This document shows positions 3,285-44,026 of a stretch of 64,000 nt of DNA, one piece after another. The notes under the pieces were generated by a model. It searched no databases, had not been told where the DNA came from, and worked only from the letters and a program-made list of their open reading frames with translations. The DNA comes from Pirellulales bacterium (GTDB taxonomy: Bacteria > Planctomycetota > Planctomycetia > Pirellulales > UBA1268), in the NCBI GenBank assembly GCA_044336985.1, contig JBIIOK010000002.1:4199-68198 (forward strand), read 5' to 3'. Each line of letters starts with the position of its first letter. Within the stretch, counting starts at the first letter, position 1. Made by a program: the position numbers and the translations under genes.

Positions 3285-3410
3285 GGAGCTGCGATTTCGA
3301 GGCCGCGCGGATTGCCGCCGGAACGGCAGAAGTCTCCTCGCGGTGGCCCTCGAGGACTCGGTCCAAATGCTCGTCGAGCTTCCGCCGATTCCGGCGTTCA
3401 GCATCGATGG
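3285..3410 (+). repeat. family B hairpin repeat, copy B1 (arms 3317-3332 and 3379-3395)
   Basis: GCCGGAACGGCAGAAG ... ATGCTCGTCGAGCTTCCGCCGATTCCGGC. The same architecture occurs at 4266-4367 (inverted) and 20921-21035. Confidence 0.8.
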
Positions 3411-3436
3411 GGCTGTGTGCTGCCAGGGATAGAGAC

Positions 3437-4219
3437 ATGCCGAACGTGCTCGAAAAGATCGTGGAGCGGAAGCGGAAGGAGGTGGCGATTGCGCGGGAGC
3501 GCGTGCCGACCGCCGCGCTCGATGGCAGGCTCGCGGCGGCGTCGCCCGTGCGGGATTTTTTCGGCGCCGTGTCGCGGCCCGGGGGCGTCAATCTGATCGC
3601 CGAGTTCAAGCGCAAGAGCCCGTCGGCCGGTGAGATCCGGCCCGGGGCGACGGTCGAGGAGGTCGTCCGCGGCTACGAGGCGGCCGGGGCTGCGGCGCTT
3701 TCCGTGCTCACCGACGGCTGGGACTTCGGCGGCAGCCTCATCGATCTCGAGGCCGCGCGGATCGCCGTGCCGCTGCCGGTGCTGCGGAAGGAATTCATCG
3801 TCGACCGTTACCAGGTGATCGAGGCCCGGGCCCATGGGGCCGACGCGGTGCTCTTGATCGCCGAGTGCCTCGACGACTGCCACCTGCGCAGCCTTTATCG
3901 CGAGATCATCGATCTCGGCATGACGCCGCTCGTCGAGCTGCACGACGAGGAGAATCTGCCGCGGGTGCTCGATCTCGGGGCCACGCTCGTGGGCGTGAAC
4001 AACCGGAATCTCAAGACGATGACCACCGATCTCGACCACGTGCTCCGGTTGCGGGAGCGGGTGCCGAGCGACGTCGTGCTCGTGGCGGAGAGCGGCATCA
4101 AGACGCGGGCCGACGTCGAGCGGCTCGAAGCAGCCGGCATCGGCGCGATGCTCGTGGGTGAATCGCTCCTCAAGAGCCCCGATCCGGGAAAGGCCGCAGC
4201 GGCGCTGCTTGGCAAGTAG
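3437..4219 (+). CDS. trpC: indole-3-glycerol phosphate synthase
   Basis: MPNVLEKIVERKRKEV..., IAEFKRKSPS, SVLTD, LRKEFI, NNRNL, ESGI. The stop TAG lies inside repeat A. Confidence 0.93.
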   Translation: MPNVLEKIVERKRKEVAIARERVPTAALDGRLAAASPVRDFFGAVSRPGGVNLIAEFKRKSPSAGEIRPGATVEEVVRGYEAAGAAALSVLTDGWDFGGSLIDLEAARIAVPLPVLRKEFIVDRYQVIEARAHGADAVLLIAECLDDCHLRSLYREIIDLGMTPLVELHDEENLPRVLDLGATLVGVNNRNLKTMTTDLDHVLRLRERVPSDVVLVAESGIKTRADVERLEAAGIGAMLVGESLLKSPDPGKAAAALLGK

Positions 4220-4237
4220 GACAGGCTTCAGCCTGTC
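4216..4237 (+). repeat. family A hairpin repeat GTAGGACAGGCTTCAGCCTGTC
   Basis: 7-bp stem GACAGGC/GCCTGTC with loop TTCA. Contains the trpC stop codon (4217-4219). Confidence 0.85.
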
Positions 4238-4244: not shown

Positions 4245-4385
4245 GACGACCCCAGACGGAGAGCCGCCGGAATCGGCGGAAGCTCGACGAGCATTTGGAC
4301 CGAGTCCGCGAGGGACACCGCGAGGATCCGAAGGAGTCGCGCAGCGACCGGCTTCTGCCGTTCCGGCGGCGCGTTGGGCGAGCAA
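4245..4385 (-). repeat. family B hairpin repeat, copy B2 (arms 4266-4282 and 4352-4367)
   Basis: Reverse complement of the B1/B3 architecture, flanked by family A units on both sides. Confidence 0.8.
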
Positions 4386-4407
4386 GGCAGGCTGAAGCCT
4401 ACCCTAC
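4386..4407 (-). repeat. family A hairpin repeat, GGTAGGC variant
   Basis: GGCAGGCTGAAGCCTACCCTAC. Contains the stop codon (CTA, 4404-4406) of the response regulator gene. Confidence 0.85.
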
Positions 4408-5117
4408 CGGACGAAGCGGTACCCCATGCCGCGGACGGAGAGGAAATGCACCGGCTTCGACGGGTCTTCCTCGAAGTATTTCCGCAGGTTGAGCATGAAC
4501 GTGTCGATCGTGCGCGTCGCCGGCGGGCGGGCCATGCCCCAGACCTTCGTGAGCAGCTCTTCCCGCGACACCACCACCCCCTCGTGCTCCACGAGATAAC
4601 GCAGGAGCTTCATCTCGAGGTTCGTGAGCTTGACCGGCTTGTCCTTGAAGCGGGCCTCCCAGGTATCGAAGTTGACCTCGGCATCGCCGAATCGGCAGGC
4701 GGTGCTGCGGCCGGCGCCGCCGTTCTCGGGGGCCGCACGGCCGGCGCGGCTGCGCCTGGCCAGCAGGTTGCGGACGATCGAGATCAGCTCCTCGAGATCG
4801 AACGGCTTCTGCAGGTAGACGTCGGTGCCGGCGTCGAACCCGCGAATCCGATCCTCCACCAGCGTGCGGGCCGTGAGCATGACGATCGGCACGTCGTTGC
4901 CCTGCCCGCGGATGGCCTCGCAGACGGCGTAGCCGCTCATGCCGGGCAGCATCAGATCGAGTACCACGAGGTCGACGGGGGGCTGGTCGGCTTCGAGCTG
5001 CGCGAGGGCGGATTGGCCGTCGCCGGCGGTCGTCACCTGGAAGCCCTCGGCCTCGAGGTTGAACTTGATGCCGATCGCGAGGTGTTCTTCGTCCTCGACG
5101 ACGAGGATGTGCGGCAT
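4404..5117 (-). CDS. OmpR/PhoB-family response regulator
   Basis: ORF trimmed to MPHILVVEDEE. Receiver motifs DLVVLDLMLPGMSG and LQKPF. Winged-helix C-terminus LTNLEMKLLRYL...VRGMGYRF. Confidence 0.92.
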   Translation of the reverse strand: MPHILVVEDEEHLAIGIKFNLEAEGFQVTTAGDGQSALAQLEADQPPVDLVVLDLMLPGMSGYAVCEAIRGQGNDVPIVMLTARTLVEDRIRGFDAGTDVYLQKPFDLEELISIVRNLLARRSRAGRAAPENGGAGRSTACRFGDAEVNFDTWEARFKDKPVKLTNLEMKLLRYLVEHEGVVVSREELLTKVWGMARPPATRTIDTFMLNLRKYFEEDPSKPVHFLSVRGMGYRFVR

Positions 5118-5121
5118 GGCG

Positions 5122-6162
5122 CTACCGCGCGAGCACGGTGCGCTCGCGGACAGGACGGGTGAAGCCGTGGTCGAGAAACCAACTCCAGGCGTCGCCCACG
5201 GTCGAATCAAACGGCCGGTAAGCATAGCCGAGTTCGGCCTGGGCGCGGGCGCAGGAGAAGTTGTGCGGCAGCATCGACATCGTCACGGCGGCCGAATTCA
5301 CCGGCAGCTCGCGGCGGGTGAAGAGGCTCGCGAGATCGCCCACCCAGCCGGCCGTCCGCACGATCGGCCGGGGCGCGATGCCCAGCGGCTGCATCCGCCC
5401 GGCGGCGCGGGCGAAGATCCGCCAGGCGTCGAGGTAGGAGAGCGTATGGCCGCCGAGGATGTAGCGGCGGCCGGTGCGGCCCGTCGTCATCGCCGAGAGG
5501 ATTCCCTCGGCCACGTCGCGGACGTCGACGAAGTCGTTGGCGCCGGGGGGAGCGAAGAGCCCCTTGCCCGAGCCCACCTCGAGCAGCATCCGACCGCTCG
5601 ACGGCTTCCAGTCCCACGGGCCGATCATGTAGACGGGGTTCACGATCACGGCATCGAGGCCGCGGCCGATCTCATCCTGCACGACGGCCTCGGCCTCGCG
5701 CTTCGTGACCACATAGGGGCACTCGGGCATGCCGCCGGGAGGCGTGTCTTCGTCGGCCGGGGCGCCGTCCGACCGCAGCCCCACGGCATCGACGCTCGAG
5801 ACGTGCACGAGCCGCGCGCCGGCCCGCCGCGCCGCCCGGGCGACGTGCCGCGTGCCCTCGACGTTGACGGCATGCATCTCGTCGCGGTGCCGCCAGCCGC
5901 AGTGCACCATCGCCGCCGAATGCACGACGAACGACGCGCCGTCGATCGCCTCCTGCAGCGCCCGCTCGTCGTGGAGCGGAGCCTTGGCGGTCTGCACATG
6001 GAGGCCGGCGAGTTCCCGGCCCGCCGAGCGGACAACCGCCCGCACGCTCTTGCCGCGCTGGGCGAGCAGCCGCACCACGTTGTTGCCCACGAGGCCGGTG
6101 GCGCCGGTGACGACGCAGTCGACGATCCGAGACACAGACGACTCGGTGGGCGCTGTGGTCAT
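5122..6162 (-). CDS. NAD-dependent epimerase/dehydratase family (SDR) protein
   Basis: ORF trimmed to MTTAPTE. Rossmann motif VVTGATGLVGNNVV and a YxxxK-like PYVVTK. Lies 4 nt upstream of the response regulator start, so probably an operon. Confidence 0.85.
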   Translation of the reverse strand: MTTAPTESSVSRIVDCVVTGATGLVGNNVVRLLAQRGKSVRAVVRSAGRELAGLHVQTAKAPLHDERALQEAIDGASFVVHSAAMVHCGWRHRDEMHAVNVEGTRHVARAARRAGARLVHVSSVDAVGLRSDGAPADEDTPPGGMPECPYVVTKREAEAVVQDEIGRGLDAVIVNPVYMIGPWDWKPSSGRMLLEVGSGKGLFAPPGANDFVDVRDVAEGILSAMTTGRTGRRYILGGHTLSYLDAWRIFARAAGRMQPLGIAPRPIVRTAGWVGDLASLFTRRELPVNSAAVTMSMLPHNFSCARAQAELGYAYRPFDSTVGDAWSWFLDHGFTRPVRERTVLAR

Positions 6163-10120: not shown

Positions 10121-10160
10121 TGGCAGCCCGGGTTTTTCAACGGACGAAGCGGTCTACTGT

Positions 10161-10182
10161 GACAGGCTGAAGCCTGTCCTAC
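10161..10182 (-). repeat. family A hairpin repeat
   Basis: GACAGGCTGAAGCCTGTCCTAC. Contains the stop codon (CTA, 10179-10181) of the radical SAM gene. Confidence 0.85.
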
Positions 10183-12194
10183 TGGCCGCGTTCGGGGCGG
10201 TAGCCGATCGACTTGCGGGGCCGCCGCTGCTTTCGGCCGCCTGGCCCGCCGCGCCCTCCGCGGGCCGTGGCAGGCCCGCCTCTGATGTGGTCGCCCGACG
10301 TGCTCTCCGTGAAGGCCTGCGTGGCCTCGCGGCGCTTCTTGTCGAGGGCCTCCTTCGGCGGCCGATCGGGAATCAGGCAGTCGCAGCCGGAGCCGATCAG
10401 GTCCTGCCGTCCGGATTGCTCGAGCGCCCGCCGCACCTCGAAGTAGTTTTCAGGCTTGAAGAATTGCAGGAGCGCCCGCTGCATCCGCCGGTCCTTCAGG
10501 CCCTTCGTCACCTTCACCGGCTCGCGCGTCATCGGGTCGAGGCCCGTGTAATACATGCAGGCGGCGATGTCGAACGGGCTCGGGATGAAGTCCTGCACCT
10601 GATCCGGCTTGTAGCTATTCCGCTTGAGGAAGAGGGCGAGGTCGATCATCTCCTCCACGCCGCTGCCCGGGTGGCTCGCGATGAAGTAGGGAACGGTGTA
10701 TTGCTTCTTCCCCACGCGGCGGCTGGCCGACTTGAAGGCCTTGTCGAACTCGACATAGTCGTCGGCCGACGGCTTCTTCATGAGGTTCAAGACCTCGGGG
10801 TCGGTGTGCTCCGGGGCCACCTTCAAGTGTCCGCCCACGTGGTGCTCCGCGAGCTCCTGCAGATACTCCGAATCGCGACGGGCCAGATCCATCCGCACGC
10901 CGCTGGCCACGAGCACCCGCTTCACGCCCTCCACGCTCCGCGCTTCGCGCATCAGGCTCTTGAGCGGGCCGTGGTCGGTGCCGAGGAGCTTGCAGACGGT
11001 GGGGTGGACGCAGGAGAGCCGCCGGCACTTCGCCTCGACCTCCGGCCGCGAGCACCGCATCTGATACATGTTGGCCGTCGGGCCACCGATGTCGGAGACC
11101 GTGCCCTTGAAGCCGGGCTGGCTGGCCAGGAGCTTGATCTCGGTGATGACCGATTCCTGACTGCGGCTCTGGATGATCCGCCCTTCGTGGGCCGTGATCG
11201 AGCAGAACGTGCAGCCACCGAAGCAGCCGCGCATGATCTGCACGCTGTTTTCCACGACCTCGAAGGCGGGAATTTTCGCAGCCCCGTAGGTCGGATGCGG
11301 TCGCCGCGTGAAGGGCAGGGCGTAGACCTGGTCCATTTCGTCCTGCTCGAGGGGCAGGGCGGGCGGATTGACGACGACGCTCTCACGGCCGTGGCGTTGC
11401 ACGAGCCGGCGGGCGTTGTGGGGATTCGTCTCGAGGTGCGAGATCCGCGTCATCTCGCAGAAGGAGAGCTTGTCTTTCGCGACCGAATCGTAATCGGGCA
11501 GCTCGATCGTGTCGGCCGCACCGCCCCCCGGGCCGGTCGGCGGCGGCTCGCTCGCGCCGAGCCGGTAGGCGATGCCGCGGAGATCGCGGAGTTCCTTCAA
11601 CGTCTTGCCGGCGGCGAGGCCGCAGGCCACATCGAGGATCGTCCGCTCGCCCATGCCGAAGACGACGAGGTCGGCCTTCGAGTCGAGGATGATCGAGCGG
11701 CGGACCGTGTCGCTCCAGTAGTCGTAATGCGCGATCCGCCGCAGGCTCGCCTCCACGCCCCCGGCCACGACGGGTACTCCCGGAAACGCCTCCCGCGACC
11801 GCTGGCAGTAGGCGAGCGTGGCCCGGTCGGGCCGCCGGCCGATCTCGCCGTTGGGCGAGTAGGCGTCGTCGTTGCGGACTTTCCGATTCGCCGTGTAGTG
11901 GTTGATCATCGAGTCCATGTTGCCGGCCGACACGCCGAAGAAGAGCCGCGGCCGGCCAAACTGCCGCCAGGGCTCGCACGACTGCCAGTCGGGCTGCGCG
12001 AGCATGGCCACGCGGAAGCCCGCCGCCTCGAGGAGCCGCGCGAGCAGGCCGTTGGCGAAGCTCGGGTGATCGACGTAGGCATCACCGCTCGCAAACACGA
12101 CGTCCACGGCGTCCCAGCCGCGCGCGAGCATCTCCTCACGCGTGGTTGGCAGCGGGGGCCTCGGGGCACGGTCAAGGACGAGCGGAAGCGGCAT
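10179..12194 (-). CDS. YgiQ-family radical SAM protein (UPF0313)
   Basis: ORF trimmed to MPLPLVLD. N-terminal [16 protein letters not shown], radical SAM cluster motif [12 protein letters not shown], and a basic C-terminal tail. Confidence 0.92.
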
Positions 12195-12289
12195 GACCAC
12201 CAATTCTACCCGCGAAAAAACGTGTTCGGAGTCCTGCCATCGCATTCCGAACTGGTATAGTCATTTCTTCCCGCCCGGAACCGTTGTGC

Positions 12290-13342: not shown

Positions 13343-14014
13343 ATGTCTGATACACGCGGTGAGATTGTCGATGTTCGCTGGCACGACCATGCAGTGACGC
13401 GGGGAGACCGCGAGCGGACGGCCGGCCACAAGGGCTGCGTGCTCTGGTTCACCGGCCTCTCCGGCTGCGGGAAGAGCACGCTCGCCAACGCCGTGGACCA
13501 CCGTCTCAATGGCCGCGGCATCCGCAGCTTCGTGCTCGATGGCGACAACGTCCGGCTCGGGCTCAATGCCGCCCCGGCCCTGCTCGAAAAGCGGCATGGT
13601 GCGGAGTTTGCGCAGCGGTTTGGATTGGGTTTTTCGGCGCAGGACCGCGAGGAAAACATTCGCCGGATCGGCGCGGTGGCCGAGCTCTTCGCCCAGGCCG
13701 GCATCATCGCGCTGACGGCCTTCATCAGCCCCTACCGCCGCGACCGCGACGCCGTGCGGGCCATGCTGCACGACGGCGATTTCGTGGAGATCCACGTCAA
13801 GGCTCCGCTCGAAGTCTGCGAAGGCCGCGACCCGAAGGGGCTCTACAAGAAGGCTCGCGCCGGCGAGATCAAGGGATTCACTGGGATCGACGATCCCTAC
13901 GAGGAGCCGCTCAAGCCGGAGATCGTCGTGGACTCCGCCGCCCGCACGCCCGACCAGCTCGCCGACGAAGTGATCGGCTGGCTCGAGCGGCAAGGCAAGA
14001 TCCCGGCCCTGTAG
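13343..14014 (+). CDS. cysC: adenylylsulfate (APS) kinase
   Basis: P-loop WFTGLSGCGKSTLA, LDGDNVR, FISPYRRDR. The stop TAG lies inside repeat A. Confidence 0.92.
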   Translation: MSDTRGEIVDVRWHDHAVTRGDRERTAGHKGCVLWFTGLSGCGKSTLANAVDHRLNGRGIRSFVLDGDNVRLGLNAAPALLEKRHGAEFAQRFGLGFSAQDREENIRRIGAVAELFAQAGIIALTAFISPYRRDRDAVRAMLHDGDFVEIHVKAPLEVCEGRDPKGLYKKARAGEIKGFTGIDDPYEEPLKPEIVVDSAARTPDQLADEVIGWLERQGKIPAL

Positions 14015-14109
14015 GACAGGCTTCAGCCTGTCGCCAAGTAGCCTTCAGGCTGCCCGTTTCTGGCAGGCTGAAGCTTGTCCTACTTTTGGCAGGCTAAAGC
14101 CTACCCTAC
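14011..14109. repeat. cluster of three family A units (14011-14032 plus strand; 14062-14083 and 14088-14109 minus strand) with a degenerate unit at 14037-14055
   Basis: Lies between convergent cysC and the VOC gene. The outer units carry both stop codons (TAG 14012-14014, CTA 14106-14108). Confidence 0.85.
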
Positions 14110-14642
14110 TTCGAGGGCGAGGGGCCGACGAGTTCCACGATGTTGCCGTCGGGATCGCGGACGCATGTCAGGAAGAGTTTGCCGGGGGCCGTCGTCTCGG
14201 GGATCGCGACGGGCGACTGCTTGAGCGGCTTCACGCCCAGCTTCTCGAGCCGCGCGAGCGCCGCCTTCTGATCGGCCACGATGATCGTGAGGTAGCGGAA
14301 GCCGGCGTGGGAGTGGATGAACTCGTTGTCGCCCGTACGGGGCGACGTGCCGGGAACCTGCATCAGCTTGAGCTTCGTCGCGGTGTCGCCCTCGCCGAGC
14401 ACGAGCACTCGGACCTTGAGTGGCTTTGAGTCGGTGAGGCCGGCGCCCGAGGCCACGTCGGCCGACACCTCGAAGCCTTTCACCTCCTTGAAGCCGATCC
14501 CCTCGGTGTAGAAGCGGACCGACTTGTCGAGATCGGTGACCACCGTGCCAAGATCGATCGTCGTCCGCAGAAACTCCGGCTCGGCGGCGGAGCAGGGGGC
14601 GAGGATTGCGGAGGCGAGGAGCAAGGCCAGCAGCGGGCGCAT
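14106..14642 (-). CDS. secreted VOC (glyoxalase/bleomycin-resistance/dioxygenase) family protein
   Basis: ORF trimmed to MRPLLALLLASAILAPCSA. VOC-like FYTEGIGFKEV ... RDPDGNIVELV. Confidence 0.8.
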   Translation of the reverse strand: MRPLLALLLASAILAPCSAAEPEFLRTTIDLGTVVTDLDKSVRFYTEGIGFKEVKGFEVSADVASGAGLTDSKPLKVRVLVLGEGDTATKLKLMQVPGTSPRTGDNEFIHSHAGFRYLTIIVADQKAALARLEKLGVKPLKQSPVAIPETTAPGKLFLTCVRDPDGNIVELVGPSPSK

Positions 14643-14689
14643 GGGAGTCCTTTCAGCGAAGGAGGTTGGACGACGTCGTCGGCAGTCTA

Positions 14690-14801
14690 CGAAAGCCCGC
14701 AGCGCAAGCAAGGTTCAGCCGCGATCCACTCCAGCCAGCGTCGCGCCCACCCGTCCCGCGAGAAAAGCCTCAACTCTCCTCGCTCGCGCTTCGGGCTTCC
14801 G
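14690..14801 (-). repeat. family C hairpin element, copy C3
   Basis: Arms 14690-14713 and 14778-14801. Lies in the 3' UTR position of rpoD, 7 nt after its TAA. Confidence 0.85.
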
Positions 14802-17347: not shown

Positions 17348-18336
17348 AGGCGGCGTTTATCCGGAAGACGGGGGGCCCCGAGGAGATCGTGCACGGCGAT
17401 CTGCCCGATCCGGTGCCCGGGCCGCGGCAGGCGGTCGTCCGCGTGCGGGCCTGCGCCGTGAACCCCATCGATACCTACGTCCGCGCCGGCAGCGTCGCGA
17501 TGCCGCTCACGTTTCCGTTCGTCGTCGGCTGCGATCTGGCCGGCGAGGTCGTGGCCGTCGGCAGCGAGGTGGATCGGCTCAAGCCAGGGATGCGGGTCTG
17601 GGGATCGAACCAAGGCGTGCTCGGCCGGCAGGGCACGTTCGCGGAATTCGCCGCCGTCGAGGAGTGCTGGCTGCATCGCACGCCCGACAATGTGTCTGAT
17701 CGCGACGCGGCCGCCGCTTCGCTCGTCTCGATCACGGCGCACCTGGGGCTCGTCGGCAATGCGGCCCTGCAGCCGGGCGAGACGATCTTCGTCAACGGTG
17801 GCTCCGGCGGCGTGGGGTCGGCGGTCGTGCAGATCGCGAGGTTGCTCGGCGCCCGCGTGATCACCACGGCCGGCACGCTCGAGAAACGCGAGCGGGTGAA
17901 AAGTCTCGGTGCCGAAGTCGTGCTCGATTATCGCCGCAATGATCTCGTCGAGGCCGTGCTGGCCGCCGCGCCCGAGGGCGTGCACGTCTATTGGGAGACG
18001 CTCCGCGAGCCGCTGTTCGACCAGGCCGTGGCGATGCTGGGCGAGGGGGGGCGGATGGTGATCATGGCCGGCCGCGACGCCCGCCCGCCGTTCCCGGTCG
18101 GCCCGTTCTACGTGAAGGGCTGCAGGCTCTTCGGCTTCGTGATGTTCAAGGCCGATAGCCACGAGCAGGCCGCCGTGGCCGCGGACCTCAACCGCTGGAT
18201 GGCGGCCGGGAAGCTGCGGTTGCCGATCGACCGCGTACTGCCGCTTTCCGCCACGGCCGAGGCCCACGCCCTGCAGGAGTCGAGCACGATTGCCCGGTCG
18301 GGCGCCGTCGGCGGCAAGATCGTGATAGAGCCGTAG
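17344..18336 (+). CDS. NADPH:quinone oxidoreductase / zinc-type alcohol dehydrogenase family
   Basis: ORF trimmed to MKAAFIRKTGGPEEI. MDR motifs AVNPIDTYVRAG and NGGSGGVGSAVVQIA. Confidence 0.9.
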   Translation: MKAAFIRKTGGPEEIVHGDLPDPVPGPRQAVVRVRACAVNPIDTYVRAGSVAMPLTFPFVVGCDLAGEVVAVGSEVDRLKPGMRVWGSNQGVLGRQGTFAEFAAVEECWLHRTPDNVSDRDAAAASLVSITAHLGLVGNAALQPGETIFVNGGSGGVGSAVVQIARLLGARVITTAGTLEKRERVKSLGAEVVLDYRRNDLVEAVLAAAPEGVHVYWETLREPLFDQAVAMLGEGGRMVIMAGRDARPPFPVGPFYVKGCRLFGFVMFKADSHEQAAVAADLNRWMAAGKLRLPIDRVLPLSATAEAHALQESSTIARSGAVGGKIVIEP

Positions 18337-18419
18337 TAGGACAGGCTTTAGCCTGTCATCGGTCTACGAGCGGCAGCCGGAAGGCTACCCTACTTCTGAC
18401 AGGCTGAAGCCTGTCCTAC
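18336..18419. repeat. family A units (18336-18357 plus strand, 18398-18419 minus strand) with a degenerate half at 18377-18393
   Basis: GTAGGACAGGCTTTAGCCTGTC abuts the stop TAG at 18334-18336. The second unit lies 13 nt from the stop of the convergent gene. Confidence 0.8.
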
Positions 18420-18431: not shown

Positions 18432-19646
18432 TCAGAAGGAGCGGGCTGATCGCTGGGGCGGCTGCGGCTGCTCGTCCGGCGTGTCGCTGGCAGCCTCGCG
18501 CTCGCGCTTGATCTTCTGCAATTGCTCCTCGACGGCGGTCATGCCGGCCGAGATATTCGGAAACATCGACTGGAAGGCCGACGTGTTGCCACGCGGCTTC
18601 GGCGGCGCCGGCCGCTGGGGCGAAGGCTGTTGATTCGTCGTGGTCCGCGGCTGCCGAGCGGTCCGTGCCCGCTGCTGGATCGCCTGCGGCGCCTCGCGCA
18701 CCGGCGGCGGCTGCTTGGCAGTCTGTTGCGGCGAGGGCTGCGGCTTCGGCCGCTCCACCGTCTGCGGCTGCTGCACCGGTTGCATCGGCGGCGCCTGCGT
18801 CGACGCGGGCGACACGAACGACCGGTCGGCCTGCATGGCGATCCGCTCGGGCACGACGAGATACCGCACGGCCGGCGTCGTAGCGACGGCCTGCGGCTTC
18901 GTCTGCGGGGCCACAGCCGGCGGGGCTTCGATGTCGCTCTCCGTGGCGGGCTGCACGACCGAAACGATCTCCGGCTCGGCAGCCGGTTCAGCCGGCCCGA
19001 CGAGCTGCTCGACGGCGACGGTGGGCTCGCCGGCGGTCGGCGTGGTCGCGATTTCGGCGGGCGATTGCTCCGTTGCAGTGATGGTGTTTGCAATCGGGGC
19101 GTCGGTGATCGTCGTGCTGGCGACCGCCGCGGGCGCTGGTTCCACGGGGGTGACCACAGCCGCGGCGGCCGGCGTCGACGCCTGTTCGCCGGGCGCCCAG
19201 AGATCGGGCTGCGGGATTGCGTCTACGGGCTGGGGCGTGGGCAGCGCGGCGGCTGGGGCGGCCACCATCTGGGTATCGTCGGCGGCCTGAGCCTTCACGA
19301 GTTGGAAGGCGAGCAGCGGCTGCCCTTCGCGGATCGGATGCTTGAGGATAGCGCCATCGAACGAATCCTTCGGCCGCAGCGCGGCCGCCGGCATCATGGC
19401 CTTCGGCCAGTCGCGCAGCGCCACGTCCCAGACCGTCACAGAAGCGCCCTGCGGCAGCGACCGCAGCGCCACGAAGATTGGTTCGCTTTCAACCCTCGGC
19501 TTCGATTGCGCGAGATGCACGTCGAGCGCACGGTTCACGCCGAAGGCGGCAGCGGCGCCCGCGATGAAGGCGGCCGCAAAGACGGTGGTGGCGCGGGGTC
19601 GGTGACCCTTGCCGGATTGTTTCGACGTGCGTCCGTTCGTACTCAT
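18432..19646 (-). CDS. CpaB-like (SAF-domain) protein with long Pro/Ala/Gln-rich C-terminal half
   Basis: ORF trimmed to MSTNGRT. N-terminal TM, SAF-like FVALRSLPQGASVTVWDVALRDWP...IREGQPLL, then low-complexity sequence. Confidence 0.65.
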   Translation of the reverse strand: MSTNGRTSKQSGKGHRPRATTVFAAAFIAGAAAAFGVNRALDVHLAQSKPRVESEPIFVALRSLPQGASVTVWDVALRDWPKAMMPAAALRPKDSFDGAILKHPIREGQPLLAFQLVKAQAADDTQMVAAPAAALPTPQPVDAIPQPDLWAPGEQASTPAAAAVVTPVEPAPAAVASTTITDAPIANTITATEQSPAEIATTPTAGEPTVAVEQLVGPAEPAAEPEIVSVVQPATESDIEAPPAVAPQTKPQAVATTPAVRYLVVPERIAMQADRSFVSPASTQAPPMQPVQQPQTVERPKPQPSPQQTAKQPPPVREAPQAIQQRARTARQPRTTTNQQPSPQRPAPPKPRGNTSAFQSMFPNISAGMTAVEEQLQKIKREREAASDTPDEQPQPPQRSARSF

Positions 19647-19839
19647 GACCGTAGGCCTTTCGAGTCGCCCTGCAGTTCCGCCCATCCCACCTCATGTTCG
19701 TCATCGACAAGGCGCGATTGTGGCCGCCAGAACAGATCGCGACAGAGGCTTCGCTTGCCCGGTTTACTCATTTTCCGGGGCGTCTCGTGGCATGCGTCGG
19801 CAGGGTCGCCGCACTTTGCCGCGTTTGCCGCCGGAAGAG

Positions 19840-20853: not shown

Positions 20854-20875
20854 GTAGGGTAGGCTTCAGCCTGCC
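20854..20875 (+). repeat. family A hairpin repeat, GGTAGGC variant
   Basis: GTAGGGTAGGCTTCAGCCTGCC, directly upstream of B3. The same A-plus-B composite occurs at 4245-4407. Confidence 0.8.
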
Positions 20876-25774: not shown

Positions 25775-26785
25775 ATGCCGACCGCGCTGGTTGCCGACGT
25801 GCTCGGCCGGCTTGCGATCGCGCTGGCGGCGGGCGTCGACCCGCGGCGGGCGTGGGCGAGCGAATCGGCCCGTGTGCCGACGCGGCATCGGCCGCCGATG
25901 GAGGCAGCGTCGCGGGCGCTTGCGGACGGTGGCGGGATCGCCGACGCGATGCGGGCGGCCGACGGGGCGTTTCCGGCATTCGTGATCGGCATGGCGCAAG
26001 TGGGCGACGAGACCGGACACCAGGCGGAGACGCTCCGCGAACTCGCAAGCACGCTCCGGGGCATGGTGCGGTCGTCGCGGGCGCTCCGCTCGAGCCTCGT
26101 GTGGCCGGTGTTCCAGCTCGCGACGGCGTTCGGCGTGGTGGGGCTGCTCATTTTCCTCGCCGGCGTGCTCACTGACGGCAATGGCAAAGGCATCGACATC
26201 CTCGGCCTCGGGCTGGCGGGAGTCTCCGGGCTGGCGACCTATCTCGCCCTGCTGGGTGCGGCCGCGGTGATCGTCACTCTTGCGCTGCGGTGGGCGGTGG
26301 GCAGTTGGCGACGGCATGGCATCGCCCGTGCGATCGCCGCGCGGGTGCCCGTGCTGGGCGCCGCCTCCGCGGCGGCCGAGGCGGCGGCGTGGTGCCGGGC
26401 GGCGTCGCTCGCGAGCCACGCGGGATTGTCGGCGGGCAGGCTCGTGACACTCGCGTCGTCTGCCGCGCCGGGCGTGCGGATCGACGCCGTCGCGCTCGAA
26501 GACCGTCTGCGCGGCGGCGCGACGTTCGCGGAGGCGCTCGAGGAGACGGGCCGATTCCCCGAGCGGCTGCTGCATGCCGTGGCCGTCGGCGAGGCGACGG
26601 GCAACACGGCCGAGGTGCTCGACCGGATCGCGGGGGAATTCTACGACGAATCTCGGCGCGGCTTCGAGGCGACTGCCCGCGGGGCCGGGTTTGCGGTCTG
26701 GGCTGCCGTGGCCGGCCTGATCGCGCTCGTGATCTTCCGGATTTTCTCGTTTTACGTCGGGGCGATTCAGGATGCGGTCAGGTAG
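25775..26785 (+). CDS. type II secretion system F-domain (GspF/PilC-like) inner membrane protein
   Basis: The ORF opens with TTG at 25727; I prefer ATG 25775. Two T2SF-like repeats (FPAFVIGMAQVGDETG, FPERLLHAVAVGEATG) with TM segments. Confidence 0.75.
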   Translation: MPTALVADVLGRLAIALAAGVDPRRAWASESARVPTRHRPPMEAASRALADGGGIADAMRAADGAFPAFVIGMAQVGDETGHQAETLRELASTLRGMVRSSRALRSSLVWPVFQLATAFGVVGLLIFLAGVLTDGNGKGIDILGLGLAGVSGLATYLALLGAAAVIVTLALRWAVGSWRRHGIARAIAARVPVLGAASAAAEAAAWCRAASLASHAGLSAGRLVTLASSAAPGVRIDAVALEDRLRGGATFAEALEETGRFPERLLHAVAVGEATGNTAEVLDRIAGEFYDESRRGFEATARGAGFAVWAAVAGLIALVIFRIFSFYVGAIQDAVR

Positions 26786-26795
26786 GCTTGTGGCG

Positions 26796-27704
26796 ATGCA
26801 ACGCTGGCTCGCGATCGTCGTCGTGCTCTTCTCCGCGGTCCTCCGCGCCGATGAGACCACCGTACCGAAGAAGACGCAGCAGGAGCTGATGGCGGAGCGG
26901 GGGTATGTGCGCTACCGCGGCGGCTGGCGGACGGTGCAGGAGATCGAGCTCATCGAGCGGGCCGAGCGGGCGAATCTCGCGCGGATCGAATGGAAGGGGC
27001 GGCTCGAGCGGCTGCGGAAGCGGCTCGGCGAGGCCGGGCAGGCGGAGCAGGCCGCCGAGGAGATCAGCGAGATCGCCGATCCCTTTGCCGTGCCGGCGCT
27101 CACCGCGGCGGTGGCCAACGAGACGGAGCAGCGGGTGCGCGGCTTGTATGTGGAGGCGCTCTCGCGGATTCGCTCCCCCGACGCCACTCTGGCGCTGGCG
27201 ACGCTCGCCGTCGATCACGCCGATCCGGAGACGCGGATCGCCGCCACCGAGCGGCTCGTCGCGATCGGGCCAGAGCAGGTGATGCCGATGATCGCCGCGG
27301 CGCTGACGAGCCCCGACAACGCCCGCGTGAACCGTGCGGCCGAGGCCATTCAGCGGCTGGTGGAGCCGCAGCCGGCCGGGGGCTCCGCGCCCGGCGGGCC
27401 GCCGCGGCCGCTCGATGCGCAGCTCCTCGGCGCCTTGATCGCCGCGCTCCAGACGCAGCACATGGGGCTGGCCGGCGACGGCACTCCGGAGGGCTCGACG
27501 ACGGCCACGTTCACGCCGTCCGGTGGCGGCCTCTCGGTCGGCGGCGGCACGAAGAGGGTGAAGGTGTCGGTGCGCAACGACGCCGTGCTCGAGGCCCTCG
27601 TGGCGATCACGGGAGTCAACTTCGAATGGGACTCGGCAGCTTGGCGCACATGGCTCGCGAGCCGCGAGTCGCCGGCCGACTACGACCTGCGCCGCGGAAT
27701 GTAG
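26796..27704 (+). CDS. secreted HEAT-repeat protein
   Basis: Signal peptide MQRWLAIVVVLFSAVLRA. HEAT-like AVPALTAAV...VRGLYVEALSRI and ETRIAATERLVAIG. The stop TAG lies in a degenerate A unit. Confidence 0.7.
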   Translation: MQRWLAIVVVLFSAVLRADETTVPKKTQQELMAERGYVRYRGGWRTVQEIELIERAERANLARIEWKGRLERLRKRLGEAGQAEQAAEEISEIADPFAVPALTAAVANETEQRVRGLYVEALSRIRSPDATLALATLAVDHADPETRIAATERLVAIGPEQVMPMIAAALTSPDNARVNRAAEAIQRLVEPQPAGGSAPGGPPRPLDAQLLGALIAALQTQHMGLAGDGTPEGSTTATFTPSGGGLSVGGGTKRVKVSVRNDAVLEALVAITGVNFEWDSAAWRTWLASRESPADYDLRRGM

Positions 27705-27742
27705 AGGCAGGCTGAGGAACGACAGGCTGAAGCCTGTCCTAC
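27701..27742. repeat. family A units (degenerate 27701-27716 plus strand, 27721-27742 minus strand)
   Basis: Carry the stop codons of both convergent genes (TAG 27702-27704, CTA 27739-27741). Confidence 0.8.
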
Positions 27743-29070
27743 CGGCGGCGCTTGGGGAACCATTCGGCGTCGAGGACGAGCAGCGCGACGCGGTTCTCGA
27801 GGTTTGGCCGGAAGACCGTGAGCAGGAGCAGCGGCATGAACCAGGCCATGAAGAGGCCGCCGTTGTGGGCCTTCCAGAACTGGCTGCCCAGGAGCACGGC
27901 CGCCGAGCAGCTCAACAGCGTGCCGAGGTTCTTCGGCGATGGCCAGATCGCGAGCGTGGCCATCATCGCGACAAAGGCGGCGAGCACCGGCAGGCGAAAC
28001 ACCGCGTCGTTGTAAGGGAGCGCCCAGAAGCCCTCGAGCGACACCTCGTTGGGGAAGATCCACCCAAACATCTGCCGCAACTGCCCCAAAAAGACCGCTG
28101 CACTGGGCGACGTAAACCAGAGGGCCACCACGAGCAGGCCGAGCGCCGCAGCGATGCCGAGCAGGAAGCGGCGGATGCCTCGCTCCCAATAGAAGCTGCA
28201 CCACAGCGGCAGGAGGAAGACCGGATAATAGATCGTTCCGATCGCCAGGCCGATGAGCGACCCGCTGACGAGCGGCCGGCGGTAGGCGGCGATCGCCCAG
28301 ACGACGAGTGCGCCCGGCAGGGCGTGATCGACGCGGCCGGTCATCAGCGCGGTGTAGGGGAGCAGCAGGTAGAGCACGGCGGCGGCGATCCCGAGCCGCA
28401 CGTTCTCGAAGTGGAGCCAGCCGATCGCGATCATGCCCGCCACGATCGCCAACTGCGACAGGATCGCCATCACGCGGGCGGTGGTCTCATGGAGCACGCG
28501 GCGGTTGGTCTCGGTCGCCTCCTGGCCGACGACGCCCGCGTCGGCAGAGAAGATCCGCTGCGTGGAGATCTGCGGCAGGAGGAAGAGCAGGGGATAGCCG
28601 GGGCCGAGGCGGGCGAGCTGATCGGCGTCGACCTTGGCGTCGCGGGTCTCCAGCCTCGTCGCCGCCGCGGCGCCGGCGAGGTCGTCGCGCTGCGGCCGCG
28701 TGGTGATCACGTTGGCCAGGAGAAACACGAGCAGCGATGCGCCGAGAAACGTGAGCCCGCCACCGGAGAGGTTCGATTCGAGCAGCGGCCGCCTCACCAT
28801 CAGCGAATCGAAGAGCATCCGCAAGAGGAAGGCCGCCGACACGGCGAAGATCCAGATGAAGCCCATCTGCTGGACCGCGGCGCTCGCCTTGTAGCCGCCG
28901 TACTCGACGGCCAGAAGGCCCGGGGCCAGCAGCACCAGCCCGATGAGGTCGAGGTTGCGCACGCTCCAGAGCCGGTTGAACTTGAAGAAGAGCGCGATCG
29001 AGAGGAGCGACGAGAGGTAGAACCACGTCGTGGGATTGACGCGGTAATATTGAAACAAGATGTCGCTCAT
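27739..29070 (-). CDS. polytopic integral membrane protein, function unknown (443 aa)
   Basis: ORF 27739..31014 trimmed to MSDILFQYYRV. At least 9 hydrophobic segments. Confidence 0.75.
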   Translation of the reverse strand: MSDILFQYYRVNPTTWFYLSSLLSIALFFKFNRLWSVRNLDLIGLVLLAPGLLAVEYGGYKASAAVQQMGFIWIFAVSAAFLLRMLFDSLMVRRPLLESNLSGGGLTFLGASLLVFLLANVITTRPQRDDLAGAAAATRLETRDAKVDADQLARLGPGYPLLFLLPQISTQRIFSADAGVVGQEATETNRRVLHETTARVMAILSQLAIVAGMIAIGWLHFENVRLGIAAAVLYLLLPYTALMTGRVDHALPGALVVWAIAAYRRPLVSGSLIGLAIGTIYYPVFLLPLWCSFYWERGIRRFLLGIAAALGLLVVALWFTSPSAAVFLGQLRQMFGWIFPNEVSLEGFWALPYNDAVFRLPVLAAFVAMMATLAIWPSPKNLGTLLSCSAAVLLGSQFWKAHNGGLFMAWFMPLLLLTVFRPNLENRVALLVLDAEWFPKRRR

Positions 29071-29144
29071 GCCGCCAAGGTACGTTCCGGGAAAGGCTTT
29101 GGGAACGATTTCGAGCCGGGCGGCGGTTCCGGCAGCCTTTTCGG

Positions 29145-30941
29145 TCAGCGAAACGGCCAGATGAGCGGCGCGAGGAGCACCGTGATCGCCATCACGAGCA
29201 GATTGAGCGGGCCGCCAAACCGCAGGTAGTCGCTGAACTTGTAGCCGCCGGGGCCATAGATCATGAGGTTGGTCTGGTAGCCCATCGGCGTGGCGAAGCC
29301 GCAGCTGGCGGCCACGGTGACGGCCATCACGAAGGGCATCGGGTTCACGCCCAGGTCGGCGGCCGTCTGCCAGGCGATCGGGAAGAGGAGCACCGCGGCG
29401 GCGTTGTTGCTCATCAGCTCCGTGAAGAGCATCGTCACGAAGTAGATCGCCGCGAGCGTGGCATGCGGCCCGTCGCCGGCGGCGGCGATCGTCGAACGAG
29501 CGATCGACTCGTCGAGCCCCGTCTTCTCCATGGCCTTGGCCAGCCCGAAGCTCGCCGCGATCAAAAGCAGCGACTCCCATTCGATGCTCCGCCGCGCCTC
29601 GTTGGAGGAGATGCAGCCGGTGACGAGCACGGCGGCGGCCGCCACGAACGCGGCCGCCACCATCGGCACGAGCTCGAAGGTCGCGGCGAGCACCATCGCG
29701 GCGAGCACGGTGCAGGCGATCCAGGCCCGATCGTGCCGCGGCGGCGTCGAGCCGCTGACCTCGCTGACCAGATAGAAGTGGCGACTCGACCGCTGCCGGT
29801 CGAGGAAGGTGGGGCTGGCCTCGAGGAGGAGCGTGTCGCCCGGCTCGAGCGCGATGTCGCCGATCTTCATCTGCAGCCGCTCGCCGTTGCGGGCGACGGC
29901 GATCACGACGGCGTCGTACGTGGAGCGGAAGCGGCCCTCGCGGATCGTCTGGCCGACGAGCGGGCAGGTATTGGAGACGACCGCCTCCACGAGCACCCGC
30001 TCCGACCGCGGCCCATCGAGCTGAAACACCTGGTCGGTGGCCGGCCTGAGTCCGCGGATCTTCTGCAGTTCGACGACGGAATCGACGACACCCACGAAGA
30101 CGAGCCGGTCGCCCGCCTCGAGCCGCTCGGTGGGCGCGACCGCCGCCATCACATGTCCGGCGCGATCGATCTCCATCAGGAAGAGGCCTTCGAGGCCGCG
30201 GAGACCGGCCTCCTCGATCGTGCGTCCCACGAGCGGGCTGCCCGGCTCGACGAGCATCTCGAGCGAATATTGCCGCGGGTCGTCGCTCTGGCTCATCGCG
30301 GGCCGCCGATCCTTGAGGAGATAGCGGCTCTTGCTGGCCACGAGCAGGTAGGCGAACCCCGCGATGAGCAGGGGCACGCCGAGCCAGGTGATCTCGAACA
30401 TGCCGAGCGTGCGGCCGGTCTTGGCCGCAACGAGGCCGCTGACGACCACGTTCGTGCTCGTGCCGATGAGCGTGCAGAGGCCGCCGAGGATGACGGCGGC
30501 GTTCATCGGCATGAGCAGTTTCGAGACGCTCAGCCGGTGCTTCTTCGCCCAATCTCGGATCGCCGGCACCATCAGGGCCACGACGGGGGTGTTGTTCATG
30601 AAGGCGGAGAGGGCGGCCGGCGCGACCATGGTGCGGACCTGCGCCGAGGAGAGCGATTGCGGGCGGCCGAGCGCCCGGTCGACGAGGCTGGCCAGGGCCC
30701 CGGTTCGTTCCACGGCCGCGGCCACCACGAAGAGCGCGGCGACGGTGAGCATGCCCTCGTTGGCCATCCCCTTGAAGGCCTCGTCGGGGGCGAGCACGCC
30801 GGCCGCCAGGAGGACGACCACGCCGCCGATCATCGCCATGTCGGGCGCCCGCTGCCCAAACAGGAGGGCCATGAGGGTCGCGAACGTCACGATCGCCGTG
30901 AGCGTTGCCTGCCAGTTGGTGAAAAGGGCGTCGGGAATCAT
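29145..30941 (-). CDS. SLC13/DASS-family permease with two central TrkA-C (RCK_C) domains
   Basis: ORF 29145..32165 trimmed to MIPDALFTNW. FMNNTPVVALM and MSNNAAAVLLFPIA permease motifs. Two TrkA-C-like segments (VEPGSPLVGRTIEEAGLR, VSNTCPLVGQTIREGRFR). Confidence 0.9.
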   Translation of the reverse strand: MIPDALFTNWQATLTAIVTFATLMALLFGQRAPDMAMIGGVVVLLAAGVLAPDEAFKGMANEGMLTVAALFVVAAAVERTGALASLVDRALGRPQSLSSAQVRTMVAPAALSAFMNNTPVVALMVPAIRDWAKKHRLSVSKLLMPMNAAVILGGLCTLIGTSTNVVVSGLVAAKTGRTLGMFEITWLGVPLLIAGFAYLLVASKSRYLLKDRRPAMSQSDDPRQYSLEMLVEPGSPLVGRTIEEAGLRGLEGLFLMEIDRAGHVMAAVAPTERLEAGDRLVFVGVVDSVVELQKIRGLRPATDQVFQLDGPRSERVLVEAVVSNTCPLVGQTIREGRFRSTYDAVVIAVARNGERLQMKIGDIALEPGDTLLLEASPTFLDRQRSSRHFYLVSEVSGSTPPRHDRAWIACTVLAAMVLAATFELVPMVAAAFVAAAAVLVTGCISSNEARRSIEWESLLLIAASFGLAKAMEKTGLDESIARSTIAAAGDGPHATLAAIYFVTMLFTELMSNNAAAVLLFPIAWQTAADLGVNPMPFVMAVTVAASCGFATPMGYQTNLMIYGPGGYKFSDYLRFGGPLNLLVMAITVLLAPLIWPFR

Positions 30942-31112
30942 GCGCGGCGTCTCGGCGCGAATGTGGAAGAACCAGCAAAGTTGTCGTTCGCAGGGCGATG
31001 ATTCGCAAGTGCAAATCGCGTCATCCGTGCCGGCGGGCGGACAGATGGCGGCCGCGGCGGCCGGCGCGGTACGCTGCCTTCCCGTATCCATCCCCCACGA
31101 GGAGTTCCGGCC

Positions 31113-31736
31113 GTGATCGACCAGCTGCTGCAGGGTAACGTCAAGTTCGTCACCGGCGAGTTCAAGCCGAACGAAGAGTATTACCAGTCGATCGCCACGA
31201 AGCAGACGCCGAAGGTGCTCTGGATCGGCTGCTCCGACTCCCGTGTGAGCGAGCATCAGATGACCGGGTCGAAGCCCGGCACGATGTTCGTGCATCGCAA
31301 CGTGGCCAACATCGTGGCCTTCAACGACGTCAACATCTCCGCGATCCTCGAGTATGGGGTCGTGCACCTGAAGATCGAAGACATCATCGTCTGCGGCCAC
31401 ACCCGCTGCGGCGGTATCGCGGCGATCGAGGACGGCGTGCACGAAAACTACATCGCCGACTGGCTCTGCATCGCCTCGGGTGCGAAGGTCGTGGCCGACC
31501 GGATCGCGGAGGAGCGTGGGCTCTCGCGGGAGGAGAAACTCGCCGTGCTCACCGAGGAAAACGTGAAGCTGCAGATCAGGCACCTCAAGAATCTCGCGCT
31601 CATCCGCAACATGCATAAGAAAGGTTCGCTGCCGCGGATCCACGGCTGGCTCTACCGCGTGGAGACCGGCACGGTGGACGTGCTCGTCGACGGCCGTGAC
31701 CCGAAGCCGGGCCCGGGCCTGACAGCCCTGGCGTGA
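31113..31736 (+). CDS. beta-class carbonic anhydrase
   Basis: GTG start after GAGGAG. CSDSRV, HRNVAN, GHTRCGG zinc-ligand motifs. Confidence 0.9.
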   Translation: MIDQLLQGNVKFVTGEFKPNEEYYQSIATKQTPKVLWIGCSDSRVSEHQMTGSKPGTMFVHRNVANIVAFNDVNISAILEYGVVHLKIEDIIVCGHTRCGGIAAIEDGVHENYIADWLCIASGAKVVADRIAEERGLSREEKLAVLTEENVKLQIRHLKNLALIRNMHKKGSLPRIHGWLYRVETGTVDVLVDGRDPKPGPGLTALA

Positions 31737-31791
31737 GGCCTGCCAGGCCGCAATCTGCGGAGATTTAGCAAAAAACTCACGCAGCGCAGCG

Positions 31792-31819
31792 TTGACAACG
31801 CCGATTCCCTTTCTATGCT
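31792..31819 (+). promoter_or_regulatory. sigma-70-like promoter candidate (TTGACA-16 nt-TATGCT)
   Basis: TTGACA at 31792-31797 and TATGCT at 31814-31819, about 275 nt upstream of the DUF1559 gene. Confidence 0.4.
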
Positions 31820-32094
31820 TCCGGGATTGGTGAACTTCCGAAAACATGCATGTGTGTTCTCGGGAGCGAGTTGGACCGGCCTCACATGACCCACCCCCGG
31901 GCCGGTCGCACAGATTTTTATCTGAGTTTTGGTCTGATTTGTGATCTGACTTTTGATTTGGGCTGATTCGTCGGTCGCACCCGTCAGCGGGCCGCGGCCG
32001 ATCCTGCCTGTCAGCCCTTAAACCGAGTTTGAGATTCGGCCTTGGTGCCTCCGGTGCCATGGCTCCCGCCTTCACTCCGCAATGGAGCACACCC

Positions 32095-33726: not shown

Positions 33727-33765
33727 GTAGGACAGGCTTCAGCCTGTCAGAAACTTCAGCCTGCC
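33727..33765 (+). repeat. family A unit (33727-33748) plus half unit (33754-33765)
   Basis: GTAGGACAGGCTTCAGCCTGTC starts 1 nt after the TGA stop. Confidence 0.8.
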
Positions 33766-35390: not shown

Positions 35391-35469
35391 GTAGACCGCT
35401 TGCTCGAAAGTAAACCGCTTGCTCCGCAAGCGGATCCGGAGCCGCTTGCGGAGCAAGCGGTCTACTTTT
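35391..35469. terminator. nested palindrome / probable bidirectional terminator
   Basis: 15-bp outer arms GTAGACCGCTTGCTC (35391-35405) and GAGCAAGCGGTCTAC (35451-35465), then TTTT. Inner alternative hairpins are built from five copies of CCGCTTGC/GCAAGCGG. Confidence 0.65.
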
Positions 35470-36256: not shown

Positions 36257-36425
36257 GGCGGGCTCTCTCTGGTTGTGTGGCGGTGTTGTCAGAGGAGAGA
36301 TGCACACCGCGTGCCATTCGCACCGGACGCGCGATGGTCGCGGGAAACAGGGGTTTCGTGGTGGCGGGTCGCGAAGGAGTGCGCGAAAAGGGTGCAGGGG
36401 ATGCGCGGGGGGAGGGCAGGGGGTA

Positions 36426-43982: not shown

Positions 43983-44026
43983 TTCAGCGCGCCGTGCGCT
44001 GAAAGCAGGGTAGGCTTCAGCCTGCC
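43983..44026 (+). repeat. 8-bp palindrome hairpin (43983-44003) followed by a family A unit, GGTAGGC variant (44008-44026)
   Basis: TTCAGCGC-GCCGT-GCGCTGAA, then GGGTAGGCTTCAGCCTGCC. Confidence 0.7.

Follow-up and report, generated by a model that had tools for sequence, protein, structure and literature searches.

We analyzed a family of short hairpin repeats, here called family A, in a 64,000-nucleotide stretch of a Pirellulales genome (contig JBIIOK010000002.1, positions 4,199 to 68,198 of the forward strand; the whole of this 64-kb stretch is referred to as the window). Family A is very probably a GTAG-tagged repetitive extragenic palindrome (REP), the cognate repeat of one clade of REP-associated tyrosine transposases (RAYTs), whose embedded TAG ends genes. 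An initial annotation, made from the sequence of the window without database searches, had described a 22-nt hairpin that lies at gene 3′ ends and donates stop codons, and had left a terminator or stabilizer hairpin and a REP-like element as options. The anatomy of the unit and its position on both sides of RAYT genes in Acidobacteriota bear out the second of these.

The family-A unit (GTAGGACAGGCTTCAGCCTGTC) is 22 nt long and consists of an unpaired GTAG, a 7-bp stem and a 4-nt loop (UUCA as RNA), with a predicted folding energy of −10.9 kcal/mol. It is thus a short palindromic unit with an unpaired 5′ GTAG, the form that characterizes GTAG-tagged REPs; the GTAG side is called the head below, and the opposite side the tail. 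Copies in the window were located with pattern searches allowing at most 3 mismatches to the consensus or to the variant GTAGGGTAGGCTTCAGCCTGCC, with dinucleotide-preserving shuffles as the null. We found 17 clear copies and 2 degenerate ones, where shuffled sequences are expected to contain none. The approximately 19 copies per 64 kb reported initially are therefore accounted for by the clear copies, a degenerate unit at 18372 and a truncated one at 27701, with two part-units in addition, and family-A units reach very high depth in lake metagenomes. Folding of the consensus unit is equally stable on either strand (−10.9 versus −11.7 kcal/mol). In the variant, the GTAG strand reaches −11.0 kcal/mol through a U.G wobble, compared to −7.1 kcal/mol for the opposite strand with its C.A mismatch, as had been proposed from the sequence. 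Tail-to-tail doublets in the window form extended hairpins with folding energies of −53 to −60 kcal/mol (z-scores of −4.7 to −8.6), resembling those of REP doublets forming hairpins (REPINs) and of bacterial interspersed mosaic elements (BIMEs). A search of the window against Rfam gave a tRNA as its sole match and no family for the REP unit. In our recount, 14–15 of the 18–19 copies direct their head towards the end of the upstream gene, in agreement with the earlier observation; the exceptions are a head-to-head pair at 55861/55896 and the units at 20854 and 44005, which are equivocal.

Genes in the window were called by codon-position GC content, and those adjoining REPs were confirmed with Pfam. 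The confirmed neighbors comprise IGPS/trpC, an OmpR-type response regulator, a YgiQ-type radical-SAM protein, APS kinase/cysC, a glyoxalase-fold protein, a zinc-type dehydrogenase, a HEAT-repeat protein and a methyltransferase. Six well-supported genes use the TAG of a REP head as their stop. An exact consensus unit at 4216–4237 (plus strand) ends trpC (3407–4219) with the TAG at 4217–4219, and a variant unit (GTAGGGTAGGCTTCAGCCTGCC) at 4386–4407 (minus) ends the response regulator (4404–5225) with the TAG at 4404–4406. The YgiQ-type gene (10179–12245, minus) stops in an exact unit at 10161–10182 (minus), and a large gene of unknown family, ending at 27739, stops in an exact unit at 27721–27742 (minus). 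The remaining two are the convergent genes cysC (13343–14014) and glyoxalase/VOC (14106–14711, minus), which have three 22-nt units between them (14011–14109): an exact unit at 14011–14032 (plus) holds the cysC stop at 14012–14014, a variant unit at 14088–14109 (minus) holds the VOC stop at 14106–14108, and a unit with 2 mismatches at 14062–14083 (minus) lies tail-to-tail with the first and forms a direct pair with the other at a 26-nt spacing. A short GTAG-headed derivative hairpin (GTAGCCTTCAGGCTGCC), a part-unit, occupies 14038–14054 (plus) within the doublet spacer. The initial annotation had counted eight genes with a REP-derived stop; besides the six clear cases, two are arguable. One is the HEAT-repeat gene (26772–27704), whose TAG lies in a truncated or degenerate unit (GTAGAGGCAGGCTGAGGAAC, 27701–27720, plus), and the other an open reading frame (ORF) with FGSGTIT repeats (50886–51461), which ends in the TAG of a variant unit at 51458–51479 (plus). 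The latter overlaps a long antisense ORF, and is probably a real gene given its signal peptide and regular repeats. As was also noted initially, units abut the stops of two further genes: the first G of a unit with 1 mismatch at 18336–18357 (plus) is the final base of the quinone-oxidoreductase stop TAG (18334–18336; TAG/TAGG at 18334–18339), and an exact unit at 33727–33748 (plus) adjoins the TGA stop (33724–33726; TGA/GTAGG) of the methyltransferase gene (33109–33726). GTAG-REP heads hold approximately 9–10 of the approximately 17 TAG stops in the window, one of them belonging to a second family (GTAGACCGCTTGCTCCGCAAGCGGT), and raise the use of TAG in the window from about 15% to about 36% of genes.

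A larger sample was obtained by pooling the window with 113 other loci, which gave 285 copies with at most 2 mismatches. Gene 3′ ends were scored by coding signature (at least 80 open codons and a GC3–GC2 difference, between third and second codon positions, of at least 0.22). Of the 285 copies, 162 have a same-strand gene end within 400 nt of the head and facing it, and in 70 of these 162 the REP's own TAG is the stop of a coding-like ORF; the initial claim that the embedded TAG ends reading frames is correct. Neighboring offsets contain 1–6 copies each, the next-commonest ones 4–6 compared to the 70 at offset 0. This offset-0 share amounts to 35% of copies in planctomycete-labeled loci and 14% in acidobacterial ones. 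Gene ends within 15 nt are found at 107 heads and at 11 tails. Pairs of units within 150 nt are tail-to-tail, that is, heads-out, in 89 cases and direct in 29, and the pair at 55861/55896 of the window is the only head-to-head one. The orientation is no mere product of this doublet architecture, as singletons are equally biased: of 67 singletons, 29 have a gene end facing only the head and 1 has a gene end facing only the tail (p = 6e-8). Replication-strand bias was likewise rejected as the cause, both orientations being found less than 100 nt apart at convergent gene ends. At the two positions 5′ of GTAG, A occurs in 55% and approximately 43% of copies, whether or not the copy provides a stop, and 23 of the 70 ORFs that stop at a REP TAG have AAG as their final sense codon; the element therefore appears often to supply the terminal lysine. 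Tail-first use of an in-frame TGA in the loop was seen in 3 cases, versus 70 for the head-first TAG, which makes a pure filter of insertion tolerance or selection insufficient as an explanation.

The first lead to a partner transposase was a REP-carrying IMG/VR contig with a 180-aa ORF similar to E. coli RayT (phmmer E-value 5.5e-7) that contains the Pfam domain Y1_Tnp and is flanked by doublets of a sibling REP (GTGGCGCAGGCTTC(C)AGCCTGTG). We retrieved 80 loci related to this protein, nearly all from Acidobacteriota (L364–L443). In L368, L371, and L373 an exact family-A unit is located approximately 65 nt upstream of the RAYT gene, which encodes 181 aa, and a family-A doublet just downstream, and in L375 such a 181-aa gene is bracketed by the exact unit in the same way. 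In L369, L378, and L386 the RAYT gene is bracketed by a form with 1 mismatch (GTAGGACGGGC...). Since a RAYT gene flanked by its own REP constitutes a REPtron, this arrangement in Acidobacteriota identifies family A as a bona fide REP with a cognate RAYT. The RAYT proteins carry the HUH motif (ANHVHVLL) and the Y---NP motif (YIERNPV) of class 2 TnpA-Y1 enzymes. Pfam PF01797 (Y1_Tnp) was matched on a RAYT paralogue (1.6e-6), and with NCBIfam NF047646 (REP_Tyr_transpos) L371 scored 80.1 bits (cutoff 80) and L375 73.4 bits. The RAYT genes of L369, L375, and L378 themselves stop in the TAG of their own REP. On a maximum-likelihood tree of the 80 RAYT proteins, the REP labels require 16 changes, compared to 35.5 when shuffled (0 of 200 shuffles as low), and in one supported clade, 8 of the 11 members have the type-A REP on their flanks. 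REP type and RAYT lineage thus co-vary. For the planctomycete genome of the window itself, we infer the same link between family A and a RAYT. Single acidobacterial genomes contain several RAYT paralogues, each with a REP type of its own (GTAGGACAGGC, GTAGCACAGAC, GTGGCACAGAC or GTGGCGCAGGC).

Other routes to the transposase were less productive. E. coli RayT as query returned enterobacterial proteins only, and nothing new came of scanning viral contigs with the cognate RAYT. One GC-rich RAYT candidate, P0160, originates from soil, and the REPs on its flanks are of a further type. There was no RAYT gene in the window, nor among the recurrent REP-adjacent protein families of the 113 loci; a recurrent "ORF" beside the REPs in these loci turned out to be another non-coding repeat between REPs.

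The repeat had been thought specific to this genome, which was not borne out. A scan for the exact 22-mer, with one genome per species, found it in more than 113 contigs among the matches listed. These include about 13 Planctomycetota metagenome-assembled genomes (MAGs), mostly of freshwater Pirellulales type, and about 24 Acidobacteriota MAGs, many on long-read contigs of up to 2.7 Mb; a few carrier bins bear other labels, the phylum of the carriers being that given by the depositors. Orthologue searches put the window itself among freshwater Pirellulales MAGs, with trpC genes up to 90–94% identical to its own. Acidobacterial doublets have spacers of 27–42 nt with GGGTTT...AAACCC ends, and planctomycete spacers are short and irregular. 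One 12-kb contig filed as viral (L360, IMGVR_UViG_3300005534_000429) contains 17 REP units of two types; rather than a phage, it probably represents cellular DNA or a REP-rich region.

Comparison of orthologous gene ends in relatives that lack the repeat, which the initial annotation had suggested as a check, revealed TGA at the same codon at both the cysC/VOC and the trpC ends. In five REP-free relatives (cysC 82–87% identical), cysC and VOC abut as ...TGATCA..., and both proteins have exactly the lengths of those in the window, where a REP doublet separates the genes and both stops are REP heads. Head-only remnants (GTAGGGTCAGC, GTAGGACGGGC) supply the TAG stop of VOC in two relatives, L152 and L286. 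Closer cysC strains were sought in metagenome contigs, where the best match was 85% identical. Similarly, approximately 25 trpC orthologues end in ...LLGR-TGA, versus ...LLGK-TAG followed by the REP in the window. As REP-free orthologues have TGA at this same codon, arrival of the REP probably rewrote the stop in place. In the trpC tree, all TAG, REP or altered-end states near the window fall within one 8-member subclade, and the outgroups all have TGA. A single ancestral arrival at the trpC end that rewrote the stop in place and then decayed is, from these sequences, a little more probable than other histories. Within this group, L198 has a decayed copy at the trpC TAG, L202 has a different GTAG family at that TAG, and the trpC frame of L199 continues through an inverted copy as far as the TGA in its loop. 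The regulator gene overlaps the trpC end antisense by 50–57 nt in REP-free relatives, and in the window the regulator stops on another REP head, at the point where its DNA-binding domain naturally finishes. REP-free relatives (L203–L216) have a Pro-rich regulator tail of 17–19 residues that is missing in REP-bearing genomes.

The mechanism that we propose starts from the anatomy of the unit, in which a GTAG "foot" stays unpaired, in many copies with A or AA before it, and is followed by the 7-bp stem and 4-nt loop; units occur singly or in heads-out inverted doublets able to form long REPIN-type hairpins. The RAYT clade (TnpA-REP, an HUH/Y1 single-strand-DNA transposase) would spread and maintain family A. 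Because the foot contains TAG and lies head-first at gene 3′ ends, the TAG is read as a stop, and a preceding AAG often as the final lysine. On balance, arrival of a REP at a gene end would be expected to turn the previous stop, in most cases TGA, into TAG without shifting the codon, and later decay of the REP would leave this TAG behind. If the hairpin also acts on mRNA 3′ ends or on the termination of translation, this would be a secondary consequence.

The order of events could also have been the reverse, the gene donating the TAG. The REP would then insert directly 3′ of an existing GTAG, as IS200/IS605 elements do at a fixed tetranucleotide, and in a genome of 68% GC the tolerated GTAG sites would be mostly NNG-TAG stop codons. 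Such targeting would account at once for the offset-0 spike, the constant protein lengths and the head-first singletons, and it would not depend on the selection filter that the 3 tail-first TGA stops versus 70 TAG stops make insufficient alone. The trpC ends of L197 and L200, which have the TAG and no REP, and that of L202, with a different GTAG family at the same TAG, also fit this order. However, GTAG is described as the element's own "guide", with cleavage at CT or CA (Corneloup 2021, PMC8266576), and a heads-out doublet is unable to take both of its heads from the target. The preference for A or AA 5′ of GTAG is equal in stop and non-stop copies, the units at 18336 and 33727 bring a GTAG of their own after an intact TAG or TGA, and TGA is found at all four gene ends examined in REP-free relatives. 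We therefore give insertion at a pre-existing TAG a somewhat less than even chance, and retain the reading in which the REP, as the repeat of a RAYT, brings the TAG. Several observations weigh against the latter. L197 and L200 are the nearest trpC relatives of the window, and the L197 sequence reads ATAG, as insertion at an existing TAG would have it. No empty-site polymorphism was found in metagenome contigs, which break at repeats, and the one variant seen concerns unit number: a lake-metagenome strain lacks exactly 26 nt at 14071–14096, corresponding to one REP unit of the direct pair 14062/14088, so that the number of units is polymorphic in the population. Since no empty site was seen, the direction of change is read by parsimony from relatives that are 82–93% identical. 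The gene calls in the 113 foreign loci are crude, GC3-based calls, and these loci were chosen for holding an exact copy, which introduces an ascertainment bias. Furthermore, phmmer and hidden Markov model searches, across all retrieved loci, gave no family-A-flanked RAYT in the planctomycete sequences reached. A Y1 gene does lie approximately 1 kb beyond the right end of the window (L194:12016–12516), the only one in its vicinity, but it is bracketed by another repeat, family C, and is the partner of that family, not of family A. This gene encodes a 166-aa Y1_Tnp protein (Pfam 2.2e-6), and within L194:11800–12850 it is flanked on both sides by GAAAGCCCGACGCGCGAGCGAGG... / CTTGCTTGCGCTGCGGGCTTCCGT.

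The hairpin might instead be primarily an RNA 3′-end signal under selection, whether as a terminator lacking a U-tract, a block to 3′ exonucleases or a modulator of translation termination, with its spread being secondary. The hairpin is stable on the sense strand, where alone the variant gains its U.G pair, and copies lie head-first after genes and after a tRNA. In E. coli, REPs stabilize upstream mRNA, and a REP within approximately 15 nt of a stop codon reportedly lowers translation. RNA-level evidence came from a single metatranscriptome run with a relative (X25), whose contigs are undirected. In it, a contig from a related strain crosses a same-stem hairpin adjoining the Dps TAG and extends for another 7 nt, so that its end lies 27 nt beyond the stop, which is compatible with a hairpin-protected 3′ end but is no proof of one. 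This strain (approximately 94% identical, compared with 55838–55925 of the window) has a single hairpin, GACAGGC-CTCCGT-GCCTGTC, directly after the Dps TAG; in the window, a head-to-head REP pair is found in its stead, starting 20 nt downstream of the Dps gene. Against a role as RNA signal, the copies in the window are not followed by the U run of an intrinsic terminator, but by GCTTGG, GCCAAG, ATCGGT, AGAAAC and similar sequences, and T-rich positions +4 to +6 in the pooled set correspond to the conserved GGGTTT inner spacer of acidobacterial doublets. The consensus folds equally on both strands, and a G.T wobble would also serve recognition of single-stranded DNA by the RAYT. The letter-perfect sequence across phyla, the co-variation with the RAYT and the REPtron flanks point to recognition of DNA by a protein, and we regard an RNA signal as the primary function as improbable. 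Protection of mRNA and effects on translation are plausible as consequences of the family-A hairpin. The recognizing protein could in principle be a host factor common to Planctomycetota and Acidobacteria, of the nucleoid or gyrase/IHF type, with the transposase being incidental. The 22-mer is identical across phyla despite differing doublet spacers, and BIMEs of E. coli bind IHF and gyrase. Yet the REP type tracks the flanking RAYT clade, several REP types occur per genome, each with its own RAYT paralogue, and no candidate host protein was identified; a conserved host-protein site is thus highly improbable, and recognition by the RAYT remains the preferred explanation.

The remaining family-A units in the window are as follows. 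A degenerate variant unit is located at 18372–18393 (minus), followed by an exact unit at 18398–18419 (minus) whose head is 12 nt from the TGA stop of a SAF-domain gene (18432–19685). The head of the variant unit at 20854–20875 (plus) faces no supported gene end, a part-unit is found at approximately 33752, and a variant unit at 44005–44026 (plus) has a mutated head, GCAGG. Two exact units follow tRNA-Arg(CCG) (51543–51616, minus), as the initial annotation had stated: the head of the unit at 51517–51538 (minus) is 4 nt from the 3′ end of the tRNA, and the second, at 51487–51508 (minus), lies tail-to-tail with the unit at 51458. The sole head-to-head pair seen consists of a unit with 1 mismatch at 55861–55882 (minus) as its left half and an exact unit at 55896–55917 (plus) as its right half, and sits between a Dps-like gene (55388–55840) and a shikimate-dehydrogenase-like gene (55924–56823).

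Several other features of the window were noted. The second GTAG-headed hairpin family (GTAGACCGCTTGCTCCGCAAGCGGT), at 35415–35465, gives the TAG stop of a gene at 35462–36307 (minus), and fragments of it at 10140–10160 and 18358–18372 adjoin family-A units. A further repeat of very high copy number (4273–4360) lies in the spacer of 148 nt that separates the REPs of trpC and the regulator; its summed contig depth in a lake metagenome is approximately 14,500, versus 100–300 over the flanking genes. The ORF at 50886–51461 (plus), with its KFGSGTIT/RPFGSGTIT repeats, overlaps the first approximately 180 codons of a sigma-70 ORF (50060–51430, minus); the sigma gene probably starts later than this longest ORF, as the sigma domains begin only at residue 288. 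In the region 27739–32165, two minus-strand ORFs (27739–31014 and 29145–32165) overlap by approximately 1.9 kb in different frames, which suggests a frameshift or a gene boundary hidden by the longest-ORF view.

Family A shares the described features of the GTAG-tagged REP superfamily (Di Nocera, De Gregorio and Rocco, 2013, BMC Genomics 14:522, PMC3733652), namely an unpaired 5′ GTAG, a stem of 6–9 bp and a short loop, occurrence as singles, dimers and clusters, and location between unidirectional and convergent genes. The text of that paper reports that GTAG termini often provide the TAG stop of flanking ORFs, and that the superfamily has members in Planctomycetes and Verrucomicrobia (PVC superphylum). 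The core of the stop-codon finding is thus already in print for the class, and the orientation rule and stop use of family A are, as described there, recorded properties of GTAG REPs and no new kind of 3′-end signal. In contrast to that account, in which head-to-head dimers predominate in GTAG families, family A is tail-to-tail by 89:1, and its exact unit is common to two phyla; GTAGGACAGGCTTCAGCCTGTC was not found in the text of the paper. REPs of 22 nt and the same design are listed for Haemophilus influenzae (GTAGGGTGGGCTTcAGCCCACC) and Thioalkalivibrio (GTAGGTCGGCCTTCAGGCCGAC) (Nunvar et al., 2010, Table 1; PMC2817692).

With known REP/REPIN-RAYT systems and REPtrons, including E. coli TnpA-REP/RayT (PMC2817692; Bertels and Rainey, 2011), family A has in common a RAYT gene bracketed by its own REPs, co-variation of REP type with RAYT clade, and inverted doublets that fold into long hairpins. 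The RAYT is only distantly related to E. coli RayT itself (E-value of 5.5e-7 for a paralogue). In a comparison at the level of motifs only (NHVH, WQ, YIERNP), it most resembles subclass 2.1 of Quentin et al. (2018), which is listed there as lacking REPs. Acidobacterial TIRtrons/TIRYTs, as described in PMC3733652, are tyrosine-transposase genes flanked by inverted repeats that can form dispersed families. By comparison with that description, the flanking repeats here are canonical GTAG/GTGG-tagged REPs in large families, and by the definitions of the same paper the acidobacterial loci are therefore REPtrons. As a whole, the family-A hairpins also recall the E. coli REPs that lie near stop codons. 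Both place a hairpin within a few nucleotides of a termination codon, but in family A the stop is part of the element itself, with the hairpin beginning 1 nt after it.

What is new here is the identity of the family, its letter-perfect presence in two phyla, its cognate acidobacterial RAYT clade, and the numbers for spike and orientation. That one RAYT-REP lineage, similar to subclass 2.1, crossed between Acidobacteriota and freshwater Planctomycetota with its 22-nt hairpin unchanged, with insertion aimed head-first at stop codons, converting TGA to TAG (the last residue often lysine) at hundreds of gene ends and shifting stop usage across the lineage, is a speculative and rather unlikely extension of these results. 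The occurrence of a letter-perfect REP in two phyla bears on whether REPIN-RAYT systems are strictly vertical. For the biology of REPs, family A provides numbers for a 10- to 20-fold copy spike exactly at the stop codon, a phenomenon earlier noted in passing, and the asymmetry of 70 head-first versus 3 tail-first stops is not explained by simple insertion tolerance, so that the choice of sites by REPs can be tested with this family. For annotation, it means that a selfish repeat shapes the ends of genes in these genomes of Planctomycetota and Acidobacteriota.

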